Below, piece after piece: positions 43,985 through 55,423 of a DNA stretch of 64,000 bases. Under the pieces are notes generated by a model. It saw nothing but the letters and a program-made list of their open reading frames with translations. It was not told the DNA's origin and did no database searches. The first letter of the stretch is position 1; every line of letters begins with the position of its first letter. Source of the stretch: a phage; the sequence record OZ346228.1, one strand, 5' to 3'. Made by a program: the position numbers and the translations under genes.

Positions 43985-44317
43985 ATGGTAACATTGGAAA
44001 GACGTAAAGCTATTGCCGCCACACTGGCAGACATCTTTTGGGATTGTAATTTAAAATCTACCCGAAATTGTGGTGCATCTGTAGATGTATTATTCCCACG
44101 GCCTACTATTGTTGCAATGGGCAACCTGCTCGATGTGGTATATGGAGCATGGGACAAGGAAGGTGGATTCTATATCTGGCAACCTGACTACGGGACTTGG
44201 AAAGAGGTTAGTGGTTCTTCGGACTTCACTCCTGCAGTGGCTAAAATGGATGGCTGGAAAATCTATGTCGGTAACGACATGGAACTGAAAGGCGAAATTG
44301 TTTACTGGTTACCTTAA
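43985..44317 (+). CDS. hypothetical protein
   Basis: 110-aa ORF. Confidence 0.45.
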   Translation: MVTLERRKAIAATLADIFWDCNLKSTRNCGASVDVLFPRPTIVAMGNLLDVVYGAWDKEGGFYIWQPDYGTWKEVSGSSDFTPAVAKMDGWKIYVGNDMELKGEIVYWLP

Positions 44318-44338
44318 GAAAGTCCAGGAGATAAAGTT

Positions 44339-44584
44339 ATGAACAAAGGGTGGACATTTGTAGACGGCGTTAAAAACATGCCTCTAGGAAAGTATATTGT
44401 AGCCATGGCAGATGAGAATGGCAAGGTTGATTTCGGAGTTTGCGAGGTTGTTCTTGCAGGATCTGGTGACTATGCTCACAAAACTGGGATAATTAACGGT
44501 CATTTCTACTTTGATTACAACCCTGTTGTGGCGTATATGGCTATGCCAGAGTTCGAGCTCCCAAAGGAAGGTGCAGATGTTTAA
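44339..44584 (+). CDS. hypothetical small protein
   Basis: 81 aa with GGAG RBS. Confidence 0.45.
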   Translation: MNKGWTFVDGVKNMPLGKYIVAMADENGKVDFGVCEVVLAGSGDYAHKTGIINGHFYFDYNPVVAYMAMPEFELPKEGADV

Positions 44585-44774
44585 GCTTAAATCTGCATGG
44601 AACATCGCTGTGGGGGACGAGATCCGTATCCCAGGTGGAAAGACCATTATGAAAATATCTCGTATCGAGTACGAAGGTGATCGTGTATTTCATATCTTTG
44701 CAGAAGATGGTCGAGAGATTTATATACAGGCAGGATCTCACATCTATATTCGTAAGAAAGGGGAGGACAAATGA
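44577..44774 (+). CDS. hypothetical small protein
   Basis: ATG overlapping upstream stop (ATGTTTAAG); the track start at 44511 is inside the upstream gene. Confidence 0.4.
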   Translation: MFKLKSAWNIAVGDEIRIPGGKTIMKISRIEYEGDRVFHIFAEDGREIYIQAGSHIYIRKKGEDK

Positions 44775-45100
44775 CAGAGATCATCATTTCAACTGCAGGG
44801 TATGTATTCCTGACAATCATTGCACTGGCTATTTTGGTGACAGTGTATGGGTTTGTTATCCTTCCTATCCTTGAGACATTTAGTTTGTGTCGGTGTTGGA
44901 GAAAAGCTTACGGTCCACAACCATGGAAGGACTGGCCCCACCTGGTGCGCTTAGCGTTCTCTTATGCTTACGATCACTCCAGTAGTGCATGCATAACCGG
45001 ATACCACGCCCACAACTGGAGCTGGGAAGGGTTGAGGAAATGGAATGTTACAAAGACCATACCTCTGCGCATGTACAAACCTAAAAACAAAGACAACTGA
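44771..45100 (+). CDS. hypothetical membrane protein
   Basis: 109 aa; N-terminal hydrophobic helix (YVFLTIIALAILVTVYGFVILPIL). Confidence 0.45.
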   Translation: MTEIIISTAGYVFLTIIALAILVTVYGFVILPILETFSLCRCWRKAYGPQPWKDWPHLVRLAFSYAYDHSSSACITGYHAHNWSWEGLRKWNVTKTIPLRMYKPKNKDN

Positions 45101-45139
45101 TACTTGAAAATTCCTGGCATATCAAGTATAAGGGGGATT

Positions 45140-45667
45140 TCTAAAATGGATTTCCTCCTTTTGATATTTCACCGGGCTGGATATTTTAAAATTCTTAGAA
45201 AATCAGAAAATGGATCGAAAACTAAAATGGATTTTTCAGAGTAGGCGCGACAAGCTGAATAACTCATCCTATCGTTTGCACCATATTCCAGGCCACCATT
45301 ATAGATTTCCCACACATGCTAACCTCTCCCTACTAGAACTTCCTCCACTTACCCTTGACCTTCTATGGTAACAATCTAACCGCTATCTTGAAGTTGCGGT
45401 GCAGCTTTCCAGGTACTCGATCTACTTTTCATTTCAGGGCTTGGATTTTCTGAAAATTTTTCTCGATAAATTTCTCAGTACTCGATCTGTTTTTCGTTTT
45501 CTGAATCGGATTTTCTGGAAATCGTTCCGGCTCTCAACCTGAAATTTTTGGGGACGAAATCGATTTTTCGTTTTCAGAAATGGATTTTTAAAATTTCTAT
45601 ATGGGAATATTTTAGTGGATACTGTTTTATAGGAAATTGTTACGGAGGGTAATTAGCATGCTAATTA
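45140..45667. repeat. AT-rich iteron-like repeat block with 18-bp perfect palindrome (origin-like)
   Basis: Three copies of TCGATCT-N-TTTTC-R-TTTTC-W-G (~45411, ~45476, ~45555); four AAAATGGAT motifs; GGATTTTCT twice; palindrome TAATTAGCATGCTAATTA at ~45650-45667; no ORF over 60 aa. Confidence 0.45.
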
Positions 45668-45702
45668 AATTTATTAAATGCGAGGAGTTCTCATTTAGAA
45701 TT

Positions 45703-45930
45703 TTGAATGATAATCATTCTCGTTTGCAGAATAACGGGCAGGCCCGGTGATTGTCTCCCGGCCCCTGTTGCCCCGGCTTGTTATTATAGTATCACACAGG
45801 ACAAAGAAAGCAAGGACTTTTTGCATAAATTTTTAAATGATAATGATAACCGTTCTCATTTTATGCAGCGCCCATCCCCGGTGGTTGTCTCCCCCGTCAC
45901 CGGTGCCTGCCGTCCTTTCGATATGTATAT
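45703..45930 (+). promoter_or_regulatory. two direct ~90-nt repeat units, each with a Fur-box-like GATAAT array and a GC-rich hairpin segment
   Basis: Unit 1 GAATGATAATCATTCTC ... CCCGGTGATTGTCTCCCGGCCCC ... TTATTATAGT; unit 2 GATAATGATAACCGTTCTC ... CCCGGTGGTTGTCTCCCCCGTCACCGG ... TATGTATATTGT. Confidence 0.35.
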
Positions 45931-46121
45931 TGTGCCACCTGGCGGGGCCGCTGTCAACACTTTTCAAAAAATTTTTCTAACCTGGTGCGCTAACCGTTGC
46001 AACCTGGCGGGGCCAGCCTGGCAGGACCTAACTGACCAGGTAGGGGAGAATGAAGGCTTGTAAACCTGGTGGGCCTATGCTACAGGATAGGTAACAATTG
46101 AAGAGGAGGTACAAAAATGAT

Positions 46122-46232
46122 ATGATCCCCCTGGAAAATGTAGCTATTAATGACTCTGAGGCTATCGCCCTGGTTGAAAAGGCTATGGCGGGAGCGTTGG
46201 AACATAAAGAAGAGTACGAAAATGGTGGTTAA
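46122..46232 (+). CDS. hypothetical micro-protein (not in ORF track)
   Basis: 36 aa read manually (MIPLENVAINDSEAIALVEKAM...); GAGGAGG RBS 11 nt upstream. Coordinates approximate. Confidence 0.3.
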   Translation: MIPLENVAINDSEAIALVEKAMAGALEHKEEYENGG

Positions 46233-46286
46233 CCTGGCGGGGGCGGCAGGTGGATTCTATCATAAAAATAATTTAAAATAGTAGTT

Positions 46287-46312
46287 GACAACAAGGTTAA
46301 TCATGGTATTAT
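46287..46312 (+). promoter_or_regulatory. sigma70-type promoter
   Basis: TTGACA, 16-nt spacer, TATTAT. Confidence 0.45.
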
Positions 46313-46362
46313 TACCCTACAAGGTGAACAACACCGCACTAACCAGTAAAGAGGATAAATTT

Positions 46363-46560
46363 ATGAACGCATACGGGATCAAAGTACGTCGCAACACTCG
46401 CCAGGTGGTCACCAATCAAGTGATTTGCCGGGTGGATGTAACCATCAACAACGGGCAAGGCCTTTATAAATTTCGTCGCGGTCATAGCTATACCCTGCAA
46501 CAGCTTAATCGTTGCGCCCTGACAAAAGGTCAGATCAACCACTGGTTTAATAAAAAATAA
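46363..46560 (+). CDS. hypothetical small protein
   Basis: ATG after AAAGAGGATAA; the track start at 46285 lies in the promoter region. Confidence 0.4.
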   Translation: MNAYGIKVRRNTRQVVTNQVICRVDVTINNGQGLYKFRRGHSYTLQQLNRCALTKGQINHWFNKK

Positions 46561-46563
46561 GTA

Positions 46564-46592
46564 TTGACATACAGTCAGACACCAAATACACT
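46564..46592 (+). promoter_or_regulatory. sigma70-type promoter
   Basis: TTGACA, 17-nt spacer, TACACT. Confidence 0.45.
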
Positions 46593-46624
46593 AAAAGCAC
46601 AAAAGACACTAAGAGGATAAAATC

Positions 46625-46810
46625 ATGAAAACCACTACCTTTAATTTTGATAATGCAGACTTTTCTTTTTCTGATGTCAAGAACTGCCGCCGTGATCGTG
46701 GATTTTACAAGGCTTATAATCTGGTGGGCCTGGACGATGACAATAATTTGCACGAAGTAGCTGAGATCCAGCTTGACAGATTGGACGGGAAAGTACTAAA
46801 AACTTATTGA
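46625..46810 (+). CDS. hypothetical small protein
   Basis: 61 aa; AGAGGATAAAATC RBS; promoter 46564-46592 upstream. Confidence 0.45.
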   Translation: MKTTTFNFDNADFSFSDVKNCRRDRGFYKAYNLVGLDDDNNLHEVAEIQLDRLDGKVLKTY

Positions 46811-46812
46811 GT

Positions 46813-46857
46813 TTATTTTTAGATGGCCTTGACACCAGGGCCATCAATAAAGTAAAC
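46813..46857 (+). repeat. palindromic promoter-associated repeat element, copy 1
   Basis: TTATTTTTAGATGGCCTTGACACCAGGGCCATCAATAAAGTAAAC; inverted repeat GATGGCC/GGCCATC around a TTGACA; identical to copy 2. Confidence 0.6.
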
Positions 46858-46890
46858 TAACCACAGTTGAGCGGAAAAGGAGGCTTAAAG

Positions 46891-47010
46891 ATGAGCACTA
46901 CACGCCAGCACACAAAGGTAACCATCATCGTTTGCATCATTGGGTACATCCTGGCGCAAATGTTGATGGGTAGCGCCAACGGTGTCGCAAAATTTTTCTT
47001 AAACTTTTAA
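46891..47010 (+). CDS. hypothetical small membrane peptide (not in ORF track)
   Basis: 39 aa read manually (MSTTRQHTKVTIIVCIIGYILAQMLMG...); AAAAGGAGG RBS; single hydrophobic helix. Confidence 0.4.
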   Translation: MSTTRQHTKVTIIVCIIGYILAQMLMGSANGVAKFFLNF

Positions 47011-47038
47011 TTGACAAGCTAACTTAAATCGATATAAT
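47011..47038 (+). promoter_or_regulatory. sigma70-type promoter (consensus -35 and -10)
   Basis: TTGACA, 16-nt spacer, TATAAT. Confidence 0.6.
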
Positions 47039-47089
47039 AAGCACATAAACGGGAAAACTTCCCAGAACACACAAAAGGAGAAAAACACC

Positions 47090-47431
47090 ATGACTACTAT
47101 GACCGCCTCAGAAAAAGCTATGCAGATCGCTGAACTGAAAAAACAGATCGCAGACCTTGAGAATAAGATCGATAACTTTGAAATCGACGAGGACAAGTAC
47201 GACGAAAACTATGATGAATGGTTAGACGAGATCTACGGCGAAATTATGATCGGAAACATTTCTTTTCTTCCGTCGCGTATCCTCAAGGAGCTAGATCCTA
47301 TCGCTTACCGCTGCGGATTTAGCGACTACATCGACAGCCTGGATATTGAGGACGATGAAGAATACCAGGAATTACAGACAGAGTTAGAAGAAGCAAAAGA
47401 AGAGCTTGCGGAGCTGGAAGAAAACGAGTAA
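47090..47431 (+). CDS. hypothetical acidic coiled-coil protein
   Basis: 113 aa; strong promoter at 47011-47038 and AAAGGAGA RBS upstream. Confidence 0.5.
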   Translation: MTTMTASEKAMQIAELKKQIADLENKIDNFEIDEDKYDENYDEWLDEIYGEIMIGNISFLPSRILKELDPIAYRCGFSDYIDSLDIEDDEEYQELQTELEEAKEELAELEENE

Positions 47432-47433
47432 GC

Positions 47434-47478
47434 TTATTTTTAGATGGCCTTGACACCAGGGCCATCAATAAAGTAAAC
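47434..47478 (+). repeat. palindromic promoter-associated repeat element, copy 2
   Basis: Identical 45-nt sequence to copy 1; intergenic between 47090-47431 and 47521-47766. Confidence 0.6.
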
Positions 47479-47520
47479 TTTATACTGTTAACACTGAACT
47501 AATGCATAGGAGTTAAAACC

Positions 47521-47766
47521 ATGGCAGCACTAATCACCAAATATTATGCCCCTACCAACACCAAAAGCGCCCGTATCATGGTAAAAGGCTTCGGACGTAA
47601 AAAGGTGTACACCTGGGATTATGCCTTAGACACGGAAGACAACTACACCAACGCAATGACCGATTTTATTAATGAACTAAATAAGCAGATCTTGACAAGT
47701 TATAAAGTGACCGATATTGCTTATATAGGTGAAGGCGGGATCTGTTTTGTAGGCATTGTGAAATAG
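47521..47766 (+). CDS. hypothetical small protein
   Basis: 81 aa; follows the palindromic repeat element and an AGGAG RBS. Confidence 0.5.
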   Translation: MAALITKYYAPTNTKSARIMVKGFGRKKVYTWDYALDTEDNYTNAMTDFINELNKQILTSYKVTDIAYIGEGGICFVGIVK

Positions 47767-47812
47767 TTATTTTTTCGGTGGTCCTGGTTGCAGGGCCATC
47801 TATAAAGATAAT
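47767..47812 (+). repeat. degenerate relative of the palindromic repeat element
   Basis: TTATTTTTTCGGTGGTCCTGGTTGCAGGGCCATCTATAAAGATAAT; same architecture, diverged sequence. Confidence 0.4.
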
Positions 47813-47840
47813 TTATTAACACCATGAAAGGAGAAAGTAC

Positions 47841-51147: not shown

Positions 51148-51150
51148 AAT

Positions 51151-51194
51151 TTATTTTTAGATGGCCTTGACTCTAGGGCCATCAATAAAGTAAA
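51151..51194 (+). repeat. palindromic promoter-associated repeat element, copy 3
   Basis: TTATTTTTAGATGGCCTTGACTCTAGGGCCATCAATAAAGTAAA; 3 substitutions from copies 1 and 2, all in the loop. Confidence 0.6.
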
Positions 51195-51240
51195 TTTAAA
51201 CCCTGTTAAAATACCACGCAGTTAACAAGGAGTAATGATC

Positions 51241-52938: not shown

Positions 52939-53256
52939 AAGCACATAGCCGCCAGATCTCAGAATTTACGTACGCTCACCAGTCTATAGCCTGCTAAGTA
53001 TTTATTCCAACCATAGAATAACGGAATAGTCAATACCTGCATAAAATAATTATTCGTGTAAACTGCATAACATAAATCGGCTAGGATGTCAACATTTTTC
53101 GTAAACAGCTCGAAATTATAACGGTGAGTTATAATAAACAGAGAAATCTTTAGTCGTCTAATGTTTACTGTACATTACTATACTGACTGGAATCATTAGA
53201 TGACTAAGAGAAAGATAAGAAATCATTAACAATGCAATTGTTTTATTCGTAACAAT

Positions 53257-53692
53257 AAGGCAACTATGCAAACGGATGGCATGGCGCGACGGAGTCGCGA
53301 CATAATATAAAAGCAGTAACCATCACCCCCGTGATAGTTTGTCTGCAAACTATTAATCAGATCATAGTTGCCTTGTATTTAGTTAATCATGACATAACAA
53401 GCAAGGCAACTATAGATCTGCTAATAGTTGCCCTGCTTTTATATTATGTCATAGATTATTAGCCTGTTAATTGTTAGTCAGTCAAATCAACAACGTTATC
53501 ATTTCAGTCTTTATTGTTGTTGATCGTTATTGTTATCATGCAAACGAATGGCATGGCTTATCATTTTTGAGTAAACAATCTATACGTGAACAGTGAGGCA
53601 TGCAATAGTAAGGGCGGGAATAATGAGAGTGTAAACTGTCAGGCATGTCAATTATATCAATCGTGTCAGTTATGTCACCATTATGTCAGACA
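53257..53692. repeat. iteron and hairpin cluster within the large non-coding region
   Basis: GGCAACTAT motif four times (two forming a 12-bp stem hairpin at ~53364-53413); direct repeat ATGCAAACGRATGGCATGGC at ~53266 and ~53538; five spaced TGTCA repeats at ~53636-53692. Confidence 0.5.
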
Positions 53693-54215
53693 AGTTTTTC
53701 TCCTCTTTGTCAAGTGCTGCATGAAAAATTTACAATCTTGTATGGTAGCATTTTTGCGGCCCTGTTTACATTCAGTATTGTATGTATAATCCTTGTTGTG
53801 TGGGCGTTTAGACGTCTAGACGGTCAGAAGTCTGCAGGTTAATATCTAATCTATCGGCTGCTAACTATATCCCACACAAATAGTAAGAAATATAATTGTT
53901 ATGTGCGTAAACAGTAACTCATGTTATCAATCCCTGTATGTATCGCCAGTGGTGCGCATAATGGGTATTATGTTAAATTGCCCGTAATGATAATGGTTCT
54001 CACAATGATAGGTATTCTCATTCCCCCACACAAAATAGATTGCAAATGTTGTGCCACTATGTGAACGGCCTCACCTATTAATTTGCCTCACTGCCTCGAT
54101 ATTTGAGAATTATCATAAGAATGAGAAGTATTCCCATTTCGTCCGCCTGGCAGCACTCCAGTCGCTACGGCTCAGAACAGGGCAGAATTGTGTCCATTCA
54201 GATATTTCTGTCTGG

Positions 54216-55423
54216 CTCTTCAGGTCTGTGTGGGAAAAGTCCACCTCTCTGGCGGGGCATGGGGTCATGACGGGAAAATTGCAGGTCAATTAAAAAATTT
54301 ACGTGGTGTATGAAGCGCTCTTCAGGTAAGGCATGTATTATGGGATGAAACCCTCTTCAGGCAATGATATTTGTGGGTGTGATATTTGCTGGAAAGCCAG
54401 ATATGACGGGACTCCCGGCGGGGCAGGGGTAGTACAGACAGGGGAAATATGGAGGATGTGGTTAGGTGAATTGATCAGACAGGTAGAGTATGGAATATGT
54501 TACAGGTATGTTAAATAGGGCGGCTGAATATCTGTAGGATTTGTGTGTAAAATCAAAGACTTAAGTGGTGTTGTGGTATTTTCTATAAATAATTCAAGTT
54601 TAATAGGTAATATTTGTCTCTATTCGCTTTGTGTGGTAAACAGATTCAGATGAGATTGGTTTACAAGCGTATACATAATATACAAATTAAAGATACAAGA
54701 AACCCCCCTCCCCCTTCGGCTACCATTCACCTTTTCCTCTGACTGGTACTTAAACACTTATTCAGACTCTTCAGGTTATCACCCATATATCATATGGCAG
54801 TGACTGGTGTCCTCCGGCCCCTCTTTCGTCACCCGTCCGCTTCGCCATGCTAATGCCATAGCCAATGGTTCGGTTGTTCACCCTGTTCACTCAGGTGTAT
54901 CTCCATACCCCTTCAAAACGAAGAGAACAGAAAACCCGAATTACTCGGTAAAAGAAAAGAGAAGAACTTAATTTTATCAGGATAGGCAAGAATGTCAAGG
55001 CATGACTGCTCACTAAACAAGCAAACAGTCATGTGTGGGAGGTAAGTGATTGTGGTGGTAGGAAATTTAGTTGAAAGATGTGTTATAGGTGCTTCCAGCA
55101 CTTTAGCCGGGCAGCTAATTGTGTGTCAGTCCAGCGGTTCATCCTCTACTTCACTGAAATCAATGTTCATGGTCTCTTCCCAACCATCGATCTCAGCACA
55201 AGAGTGGAGTTCTTTAGGGTTTACTCCTAAAGCCTCAGCAACAGAGTCTATATTTAACACCTCTGGCAGGTATGATTCATCAAATTCAAGGTAAATCAGG
55301 CCACGAGTGTTGTCAGCTCCACCAAATATTTCTATCTTCATAAAATCTCCTCTGGAAATGAGAGTGTGAACAGGGTTTTATACGTCCCAATGCACAGGAA
55401 TTATGCACGTTTTCCTCTTCAGG
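54216..55423 (+). repeat. five same-orientation copies of the 9-mer CTCTTCAGG
   Basis: Copies at about 54216, 54318, 54353, 54767 and 55415, all on the + strand, in a region without convincing ORFs. Confidence 0.5.
55126..55341 (-). CDS. hypothetical acidic protein
   Basis: 71 aa; first minus-strand gene after the non-coding region. Confidence 0.4.
   Translation of the reverse strand: MKIEIFGGADNTRGLIYLEFDESYLPEVLNIDSVAEALGVNPKELHSCAEIDGWEETMNIDFSEVEDEPLD

Follow-up and report, generated by a model that had tools for sequence, protein, structure and literature searches.

What does a kilobase of DNA without a convincing gene do in a strictly virulent phage, and which protein reads it? The question is raised by positions 45101-46100 of a 64,000-nt stretch of phage DNA (sequence record OZ346228.1), which as a whole is called the window here. 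Its source is a Vequintavirus (rV5-like) myophage of Escherichia coli, and across this ~1 kb, between an upstream gene cluster and a series of early genes, GenBank records annotate differing small open reading frames (ORFs) or none. We conclude that the block is a conserved non-coding control locus of rV5-like phages, with three iterons and an A/T tract in its left half and, in its right half, two repeated modules that carry predicted operators for the host regulator Fur. The reading that we prefer, at a probability of about 0.45, is that host Fur-Fe gates leftward non-coding transcription toward the iteron and A/T block by means of operators placed downstream of the promoters. Judged from the sequences compared below, lytic rV5-like phages probably read the iron status of their host.

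As Fur box we accepted a 19-bp AT-rich inverted repeat, compared with GATAATGATAATCATTATC, or the 9-1-9 form of the site. Measured against the classical 19-mer, the sites at 45703 and 45839 match at 15/19 and 16/19 positions (the latter at 17/19 in rV5) and are the best two in the 64 kb, where a first-order Markov null predicts 0.24 sites of at least 15/19 in 64 kb, or 0.01 in 1.2 kb with the local composition; in the 9-1-9 form, box 1 matches at 17/19 and box 2 at 16/19. The best sites of six E. coli K-12 control regions (fepA-fes, fepD-entS, fepB-entC, ryhB, fhuA and cirA) reach 13-16/19 and 14-17/19 by the same two measures, and the resemblance to Fur boxes that the original prediction had noticed is stronger than first estimated. 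A weight matrix trained only on these six regions, a check proposed together with that prediction, gave 23.1 bits for box 1 (45706, the top score of the window) and 20.9 bits for box 2 (45842), compared with 17.7-22.2 bits for the host training sites; box 1 scores above all six of them and box 2 above five, and 0.003 sites of at least 20 bits are expected per 64 kb under the matrix null. A second matrix match at operator 2 scores 15.7 bits. Both operators consist of overlapping sites in 6-bp phase (Table 1), as do footprinted E. coli Fur clusters (PMC2189734), and the operators of fhuA and ryhB, too, have this 9-1-9 AT-rich inverted repeat and the 6-bp offset between overlapping sites, at scores that the phage sites equal or surpass. 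Box 1 and the fhuA operator have the 15-mer ATAATCATTCTCGTT in common, and ATAATCATTCTCATT is common to the boxes of other phage genera and the ryhB operator. By sequence, the predicted phage operators are not distinguishable from real E. coli Fur operators. All features named in the original prediction are present at the positions given for them. The two units are direct repeats, as had been proposed, at a distance of 134-136 nt; identity is 73% over a 33-nt segment and 94% in the core CCCGGTG[A/G]TTGTCTCCC. A degenerate third box, AAATGCGAGGAGTTCTCATTT, is the positional counterpart of extra full boxes in CR3, ESCO13, 4MG and Ro1; its centre varies within the genus.

The region 44800-46400 has matches in 122 phage records, the best of them phage EdH4 (98.8%), and sensitive blastn brought the number to 248. 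Outside Vequintavirus, only 45665-45814, i.e. box 1 with the adjoining GC-rich block, still aligns, at 72-88% identity, in phages of Escherichia, Klebsiella, Salmonella, Cronobacter, Enterobacter, Erwinia, Raoultella and others, and most of these records have no annotated feature on the matched stretch. The island is found in Certrevirus, Seunavirus, Mydovirus, Henunavirus and Phapecoctavirus, including members of the separate subfamily Stephanstirmvirinae. In ten lineages of Vequintavirinae and Stephanstirmvirinae, the boxes keep their position amid diverged flanking DNA, and in the related genomes the corresponding 0.8-1.2 kb is free of annotated genes. The shared order of parts is three lineage-specific iterons (63-78 nt spacing), an A/T tract, one to four Fur boxes (29-38 nt spacing; two to four in other genera), a GC-rich block (core CGGTG(A/T)TTGTCTC), an AT-rich hexamer, a GC-rich spacer of 16-17 nt and CAA(G/C); iterons and spacers have diverged past recognition between genera. 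Among seven Vequintavirus genomes, 34 of the 35 columns of the box 1 stretch (45701-45735) and 93 of the 95 columns of the unit 2 stretch (45866-45960) are invariant, the conserved blocks between 45403 and 45960 are 93-99% identical, and 45961-46100 shows 61% identity. As far as these alignments tell, the operators are under strong selection, and host-grade scores combined with conservation across phage genera bear out the Fur-box reading. Pattern searches with GCANNNNCGGTGWTTGTCTC contributed less: in viral contigs they yielded mostly noise, from which a filter for an upstream Fur box left seven matches, six of them useful, and in genome contigs the matches listed were only chance ones in unrelated bacteria, which is uninformative given the ~500 chance matches that we estimate for 596 Gb.

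Boxes that stay constant amid drifting phage-specific repeats are what one would expect if their reader is a conserved protein of the host. The box arms vary independently between GATAAT-type and GAGAAT-type hexamers; since the sequence is kept and not its self-complementarity, the boxes resemble a protein-binding DNA site rather than an RNA hairpin. A tblastn search with E. coli Fur found no Fur homologue in any phage of these subfamilies, and for this reason host Fur is the simplest reader of the boxes. A dimeric DNA-binding protein encoded by the phage, for which the boxes would be operators that merely look like those of Fur, is an improbable reader in our judgement: it would not account for a match to the host consensus that equals or beats real host operators, 15-mer of the fhuA operator included, nor for the constancy of the boxes across genera whose phage-specific iterons have changed completely, and no Fur-family protein is encoded. 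Such a reader is suggested by the fact that virulent phages often carry their own repressors of early promoters, that AT-rich 9-1-9 palindromes are a common operator form, and that most of the neighbouring ORFs have no known function. Far less probable still is a decoy, in which replicating phage genomes would titrate Fur and derepress host iron uptake to the benefit of iron-dependent phage enzymes. Titration by multicopy Fur boxes is the basis of the FURTA assay, and several boxes are present per genome (two or three here, three weak ones at 53986-54138, up to four in other genera). Fur is abundant, with thousands of molecules per cell; against the decoy, so few sites in each genome would matter only at very high copy number late in infection, and the fixed placement of the boxes relative to promoters and GC block would not be needed.

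If host Fur is the reader, the next question is which transcription it controls. The -10-like TATTAT/TATATT hexamers pointed out in the original prediction are present, and they are read here as the -10 elements of leftward sigma-70 promoters; the rightward, iron-responsive promoter pair proposed on their account found no support in that form. The unit 2 promoter is among the best in 44000-47500 and invariant within the genus. Homologous leftward promoters, with a -35 element TTGCAA, TTGATC, TTGACC or TTGACA, 16-17 nt and a -10 element TATATT, TATTAT or GATAAT, were compared in CR3, F1M1E, SSE121, 4MG, Ro1, Hena1 and the IMG/VR contigs L018, L024, L043 and L057, and the leftward -10 hexamers of the Vequintavirinae lineages examined all have A2 and T6 at the same offset. 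Manual reading gave TTGCTT, 16 nt and TATTCT in ESCO13, where the scan itself chose a different, weaker match, and a leftward promoter in L021; in L052 the scan picked a different match. A spacer that varies in sequence beside a constant TTG and a constant spacing is what marks a real promoter, and the predicted leftward promoters are conserved. They place the Fur boxes 45-85 bp downstream of the predicted starts.

The competing proposal is a rightward Fur-repressed promoter lying over the box (TTGAAT, 18 nt, CAGAAT, 45703-45732), which at low iron would give a RyhB-like RNA exposing GGUGAUUGUCUCC, or a long structured leader for the small ORF at 46122-46232. This we regard as doubtful, even though the box would cover the -35 and the spacer, as Fur sites classically do (sigma-70 promoters are overlapped by about 83% of the Fur clusters of E. 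coli; PMC2189734), and no strong promoter is found directly upstream of the ORF. The candidate overlapping box 1 agrees with the consensus at only 8/12 positions and is not conserved: the -10 lacks the essential A in Mydovirus (CTGAAT), L018 (CGGAAT) and L075 (CTAAAT), is replaced in L043 and corresponds to CAGCGC in unit 2, and no terminator follows on the plus strand. In some lineages, the plus strand at the hexamer 3' of the GC block resembles an extended -10. A further argument for the rightward promoter comes from the SSE121-type core (L004, 2545-2575), which contains TTGTCTCGCGAT, identical to the junction of the E. coli ryhB promoter (its final 7 nt) and RyhB (its initial 5 nt; L224), followed by ACCC(C)TCGC at a spacing like that in ryhB, and which none of 300 shuffles equals in score (0/300). 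The resemblance to ryhB beyond the Fur box has p ~0.01-0.02 in ESCO13 and L018; many comparisons were made, and in the window itself it is not significant (p ~0.11). Because the rightward candidate is weak and not conserved and the leftward promoters are kept across lineages, we favour leftward starts near 45776 and 45922.

Combined, these elements suggest how host Fur might gate leftward transcription. On the minus strand, each module of the right half would run from a sigma-70 promoter through a GC-rich leader (core GAGACAAUCACCG) to a Fur operator some 45-85 bp past the start, GC-rich block 1 being the 5' leader of the leftward transcript if the leftward promoter is used. As long as the cell is replete with iron, Fur-Fe2+ dimers on the operators would block the leftward RNA polymerase before the A/T tract and the iterons; when iron is scarce, Fur would leave and non-coding transcripts would enter the iteron block, beyond the operators in the leftward direction there being only the A/T tract and the iterons, without a conserved ORF. 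The function of the iteron block would thereby depend on host iron, with replication initiation as its most likely candidate. We infer from sequence the actual binding of Fur, the roadblock as its mode and the iteron block as an origin. Several observations weigh against gating of this kind. A box 45-85 bp downstream of the start is not in the classical promoter-occluding position: host Fur operators overlap the -10 and the start of the repressed gene, whereas the phage boxes overlap no convincing promoter. The unit 1 promoter of this genus has a spacer of 19 nt, and the plus strand also offers weak or extended -10 candidates (TGTTATTAT at 45779-45787; GGGTCA-17-TATAAT in CR3), so that the leftward direction of transcription is a prediction. 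The palindrome could also be recognised by a protein of the phage that is unrelated to Fur, the GC-rich blocks have no convincing conserved RNA structure, and no independent mark of an origin was found at the iteron block among DnaA boxes, GATC sites, GC skew and domains of flanking proteins. In its fullest form, in which the host-grade operator array gates leftward transcription into the three-iteron A/T element and replication or another function starts only in a certain iron state, the proposal is distinctly unlikely; if true, it would describe a metal-gated phage origin in virulent enterobacterial myophages of two subfamilies.

The left half of the block, toward which the gated transcripts would run, had been described as an AT-rich array of three ~25-nt iterons with repeated short motifs and a perfect palindrome, the architecture of an iteron-type origin or of a regulatory binding array. 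The AT-richness is evident (GC 0.325-0.42 over 45100-45700, with 0.325 in 45500-45699), and both GC skew and AT skew are negative over 45200-45600. The three iteron copies were confirmed; their unit is 47-57 nt and not ~25 nt. They follow each other at 65 and 74 nt; the outer copies are 70-74% identical to the middle one, and within the genus the iterons are 95% identical. Exactly three repeats are kept in every genus examined: CR3, SSE121, Ro1 and Hena1 have three iterons of differing sequence at 63-78 nt spacing, and ESCO13 has three 34-nt repeats at a spacing of 48 and 90 nt. The 18-bp palindrome TAATTAGCATGCTAATTA is perfect in the window as stated; because relatives, among them rV5, JEP1, HMD-6 and EdH4, carry one-sided changes (such as TAACTA or GCGTGC), its symmetry is not conserved, and it is absent from the corresponding position in other genera. 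Of the short motifs, AAAATGGAT is enriched, with 5 copies in the window versus 1.13 expected, 3 of them inside the block, whereas GGATTTTCT is present at only marginal enrichment (2 copies in the block and 4 in the window versus 0.82 expected; 2 of 100 shuffles reach 4). The left repeat cluster is 86% identical within the genus, and GATATTT repeats also occur 3' of the upstream gene in CR3 and ESCO13.

Three direct repeats beside an A/T-rich element, as in an origin, are thus found in the window and in the genera examined, with atypical unit length and spacing, and the block might be mainly a phage replication origin, in which a phage initiator would bind the iterons, the A/T tract would serve as unwinding element and leftward transcripts would activate or prime, the Fur boxes being architectural or incidental. 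An initiator encoded by the phage would fit iterons and an A/T tract that are kept in layout and change in sequence from genus to genus by co-evolution; two promoters face a region without coding capacity, and purines would predominate in the iteron transcript of the minus strand (AT skew -0.27 to -0.30). In the rV5 genome paper only a "non-coding" box is drawn and the replication origin is left undefined, and the genes upstream of the block share a transcription unit with the replication genes gp230 and gp237 (PMC3606486). Other marks of an origin speak against it. The block has no mismatch-free match to the DnaA box TTWTNCACA and only 3 GATC sites in 1 kb versus 4.8 per kb window-wide; cumulative GC skew is still rising at 45-46 kb, without inflection at the block, and has its maximum at 54-56 kb, where the genes change orientation, a weak test given that skew in rV5 follows transcription (PMC3606486). 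Pfam searches of the flanking ORFs revealed no initiator-like domain, only NADAR in ESCO13 and a weak AP2-like match in SSE121, and no initiator gene is recognisable nearby. Iterons of 47-67 nt at 63-78 nt spacing are unlike classical iterons of 17-22 bp, and the precise match to the Fur consensus across genera would be left unexplained. We consider an origin with incidental boxes an unlikely account, on a par with the rightward promoter.

The GC-rich segments of the two units had been put forward as hairpins and possibly as small RNA genes. The CCGG inverted repeats exist, and their stability is not clearly above that of shuffled sequence in most lineages: the fold z-scores against shuffles are -1.3 on the minus and -0.2 on the plus strand for unit 1 and -2.1 and -1.7 for unit 2, and with dinucleotide shuffles z is significant only in Certrevirus (-2.8, -2.9) and ~0 in the other lineages besides the units of the window. 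In 12 of 13 sequences, which are not independent of each other, folding is more favourable on the minus than on the plus strand, and by eye, without a formal test, several pairs are G-U on the minus and A-C on the plus strand (4MG/Mydovirus and SSE121/L057 lineages). RNAalifold gave no consensus structure for the 13 unit sequences, the MAFFT alignment of the variable half being unreliable. Rfam had no match to the whole window at the gathering score, only two chance-level matches to the region at E<=5 (Lst thermometer and fungal U3) and none to six related loci at E<=1. A scan of the units found no terminator-like site, there being no U-tract on either strand and only UCUGC-type tails after the helix. 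The structured small RNA was dropped as a candidate, fold stability versus shuffles on both strands being not distinctive in most lineages. Across genera, the half of the GC block adjoining the Fur box is conserved and the other half variable; because the primary sequence of the Fur-side half is what is kept, this suggests sequence-specific recognition rather than a fold. The core of the block occurs within the window only in the two units.

Two variations on this part of the locus were noted in passing. At 45741-45742 there is a dimorphism CAGGCC versus CACCCC that is distributed regardless of phylogeny (window, slur16 and EdH4 versus rV5, Mangalyan, JEP1 and HMD-6), and Certrevirus is dimorphic at the same position (L003/L010; F1M1E AGGTC versus CR3 ACCCC). 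The GG form has two or three extra pairs in the predicted minus-strand helix (-21.6 vs -16.5 kcal/mol), and the two-base exchange may stem from template switching or recombination. The second variation concerns the duplicated Fur-box unit, which in Vequintavirus occupies the place of a second conserved block of other genera (GAACTACCGGCGATCCACC..., GCCCCGCCTTTNCGCCGTGGGGTGGCG); we searched for that block in the window and it is absent. In L003-L011 (e.g. L003, 2640-2745), what stands in place of the second Fur-box unit is very well conserved and of a different sequence (GAACTACCGGCGATCCACCTTCC...GTTAGCCCCGCCTTTTCGCCGTGGGGTGGCG). A tandem CTTTACA-N3-CTTTACAAA precedes it, a leftward TTGAC-type promoter of its own comes after it, and it might be a non-coding RNA in its own right.

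A 118-codon frame with an ATG start runs across both units (Table 1), and similar ORFs are annotated in some relatives, e.g. ORF 198 of rV5. That it encodes a real protein, the repeats being coding sequence, has next to no probability. The original prediction had judged the ORF probably not to be a gene and had named a conserved protein-coding homologue in related phages among the observations that would speak against its reading; among ten genomes the frame is not preserved: from the same ATG it extends over 7, 40, 92, 92, 93, 95, 109, 119 or 132 aa in relatives, with 40 aa in the closest relative, EdH4, and 7 aa in an IMG/VR contig. Indels in poly-T and poly-A runs shift the frame, deletions of 24 and 48 nt fall inside it as well, a Pfam search gave no match, and the conservation across genera is at the DNA level and in regions annotated as non-coding. 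The small ORFs called across the block in many GenBank records are likewise spurious annotation. Ordered by our confidence, the alternatives to Fur-gated leftward transcription are the rightward promoter and the origin, which are about equal, then the phage-encoded reader, the decoy and the coding ORF.

To our knowledge, Fur boxes in phages have been known only as switches of prophage cargo genes. One of them lies on temperate phages at the stx1 promoter of Stx1 phages. Another, also on a temperate phage, belongs to the sitABCD operon of lambdoid coliphages (PMC6969025). As in these two cases, phage DNA appears, here by its sequence, to be wired into the host Fur regulon; the stx1 and sitABCD boxes control prophage cargo (a toxin and a metal transporter), whereas the present ones are in a gene-free control region of strictly virulent myophages of two subfamilies. 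In a full-text literature search, Fur boxes were found described neither for Vequintavirinae nor for other virulent phages. Fur boxes as such are textbook elements, and what is new is their strongly conserved, gene-free context in lytic phages; unlike host Fur operators, the phage boxes are accompanied by a conserved GC-rich block and an iteron array. Iteron-type origins such as lambda ori, P1 oriR, R6K and pSC101 have repeats of ~20 bp in helical phase. They likewise place several direct repeats, whose sequence differs between related replicons, beside an A/T-rich tract; the phage locus differs from them in its unit (47-67 nt) and spacing (63-78 nt), and in having neither a DnaA box nor a recognisable adjoining initiator gene. 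Origins that depend on transcription are known in phages from T4 (oriF/oriG), T7 (primary origin) and lambda (activation of ori from pR). There, too, promoters are aimed at an A/T-rich non-coding element, as is predicted here, and we know of no host metal-sensor operator between promoter and origin in T4 oriF/oriG, the T7 primary origin or lambda ori.

For the replication or control region of rV5-like phages, so far undefined, the locus is a first concrete candidate. Phages of this group have been isolated widely and are applied against E. coli O157, Salmonella, Klebsiella and Cronobacter. Should Fur bind, they would sense the iron status of their host, iron being limiting in the gut and during infection; replication timing and burst size could be affected, and with them phage therapy in iron-poor tissue.

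Table 1. Features of the control locus and its borders, by position in the window (a point marks features listed without a strand).
Feature	Position	Strand	Remarks
Gene closing the upstream cluster	44771-45100	+	
Left repeat cluster	45138-45234	+	TTTCTAAAATGGATTT-type motif at 45138-45153 and 45219-45234; AAAATGGAT also at 45207; GATATTT at 45163 and 45180
Variable spacer	45241-45402	.	72% mean pairwise identity, seven Vequintavirus genomes
Three 47-nt iterons	45403-45449, 45468-45514, 45542-45588	+	T-rich on plus strand
A/T tract (GGATTTTTAAAATTTCTATATGGGAATATTTTA)	45582-45615	.	counterpart of GAAAAAATTTTTT tract 3' of last iteron in other genera
Perfect 18-bp palindrome TAATTAGCATGCTAATTA	45650-45667	.	
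Degenerate third Fur-like box AAATGCGAGGAGTTCTCATTT	45676-45696	.	10.3 bits, E. coli-trained matrix
Fur operator 1 (predicted) TTGAATGATAATCATTCTCGTTTGC	45703-45727	.	overlapping sites at 45703 and 45709, 6 bp apart
Called 118-aa ORF, judged spurious	45707-46063	+	ATG inside Fur box 1
GC-rich conserved block 1	45736-45773	-	core CGGTGATTGTCTC at 45745-45757
Leftward promoter, unit 1 (predicted)	45783-45813	-	-10 TATAAT 45788-45783; -35 TTGCTT 45813-45808; 19-nt spacer, non-optimal
Fur operator 2 (predicted) TTAAATGATAATGATAACCGTTCTCATTTTA	45833-45863	.	sites at 45833, 45839 and 45845 in 6-bp phase
GC-rich conserved block 2	45865-45911	-	core CGGTGGTTGTCTC at 45879-45891
Leftward sigma-70 promoter, unit 2 (predicted)	45929-45957	-	TTGACA, 17 nt, CACAAT; 10/12 matches
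Five same-strand ACCTGGYGSGS copies	45937-46242 (45937, 45980, 46002, 46064, 46232)	+	some within short GC hairpins
First plausible gene 3' of block: 36-aa acidic peptide	46122-46232	+	Shine-Dalgarno GAGGAGG at 46103-46109

A second, weaker cluster of Fur-like sites in 6-bp phase lies at 53986-54138 (AATGATAATGGTTCTCACA, 16.7 bits; AATGATAGGTATTCTCATT, 15.7; AATGAGAAGTATTCCCATT, 14.4), inside the ORF-free region 52939-55045, and the six best matrix matches of the window all fall within the two non-coding clusters. Its boxes are near-invariant in four Vequintavirus genomes, with indels of 30-50 nt just downstream, and blastn matches to them are restricted to the genus; if they are true Fur sites, the second cluster would make a small phage-borne Fur regulon. 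The surrounding ~2 kb without long ORFs coincide with the flip of GC skew and gene orientation, and within 53900-54300 several GenBank and IMG records of relatives start or stop, one of them annotating a repeat_region. The region 52939-55045 may hold the physical genome ends or a terminal repeat, and may be the "non-coding" box drawn in the rV5 paper. Perfect-looking Fur boxes (AATGAGAATCATTCTCATTT) were also seen in IMG/VR contigs unrelated to this phage (L012/L029, L015 and L028): in L012, which had no megablast match in the phage collection, they stand just 3' of the -10 of tandem TTGACA...TAAAAT promoters, and L015 and L028 have tandem boxes. Fur control may thus extend to further phage groups.

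The genes neighbouring the block are all on the plus strand, and no tRNA or tmRNA was found. Records under the name 'Campylobacter phage' (host Campylobacter jejuni), 16-18 in number, are 80-98% identical to this region of an E. coli Vequintavirus and are probably mislabelled or contaminant genomes. The motif ACCTGGYGSGS occurs 7 times in the window versus 0.15 expected; besides the five copies in the 300 nt that follow unit 2, where relatives have deletions of 24 and 48 nt, there are two at 44940 and 52049, and one copy forms the spacer of the leftward promoter at 45957-45929. The 36-aa peptide that follows the block is kept in relatives as MKGNMIPLENV... (MIPLENVAINDSEAIALVEKAMAGALEHKEEYE...). 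Compared with six relatives, the window has a 7-nt deletion directly past the start codon of this gene (46110-46124), by which the usual ATG (46117) becomes ATG-ATA-TGA; the only possible start of the conserved peptide is here at 46122. Farther downstream, small early genes follow in series, each with a strong sigma-70 promoter (46285, 46564, 46829, 47011 and 47450). A 49-nt module is repeated between early genes at 46810-46858, 47431-47479, 47765-47813 and 51148-51196; it has the -35 element TTGACA within a hairpin (GATGGCC...GGCCATC), followed by TAAACT, and is a promoter cassette common to several early genes.

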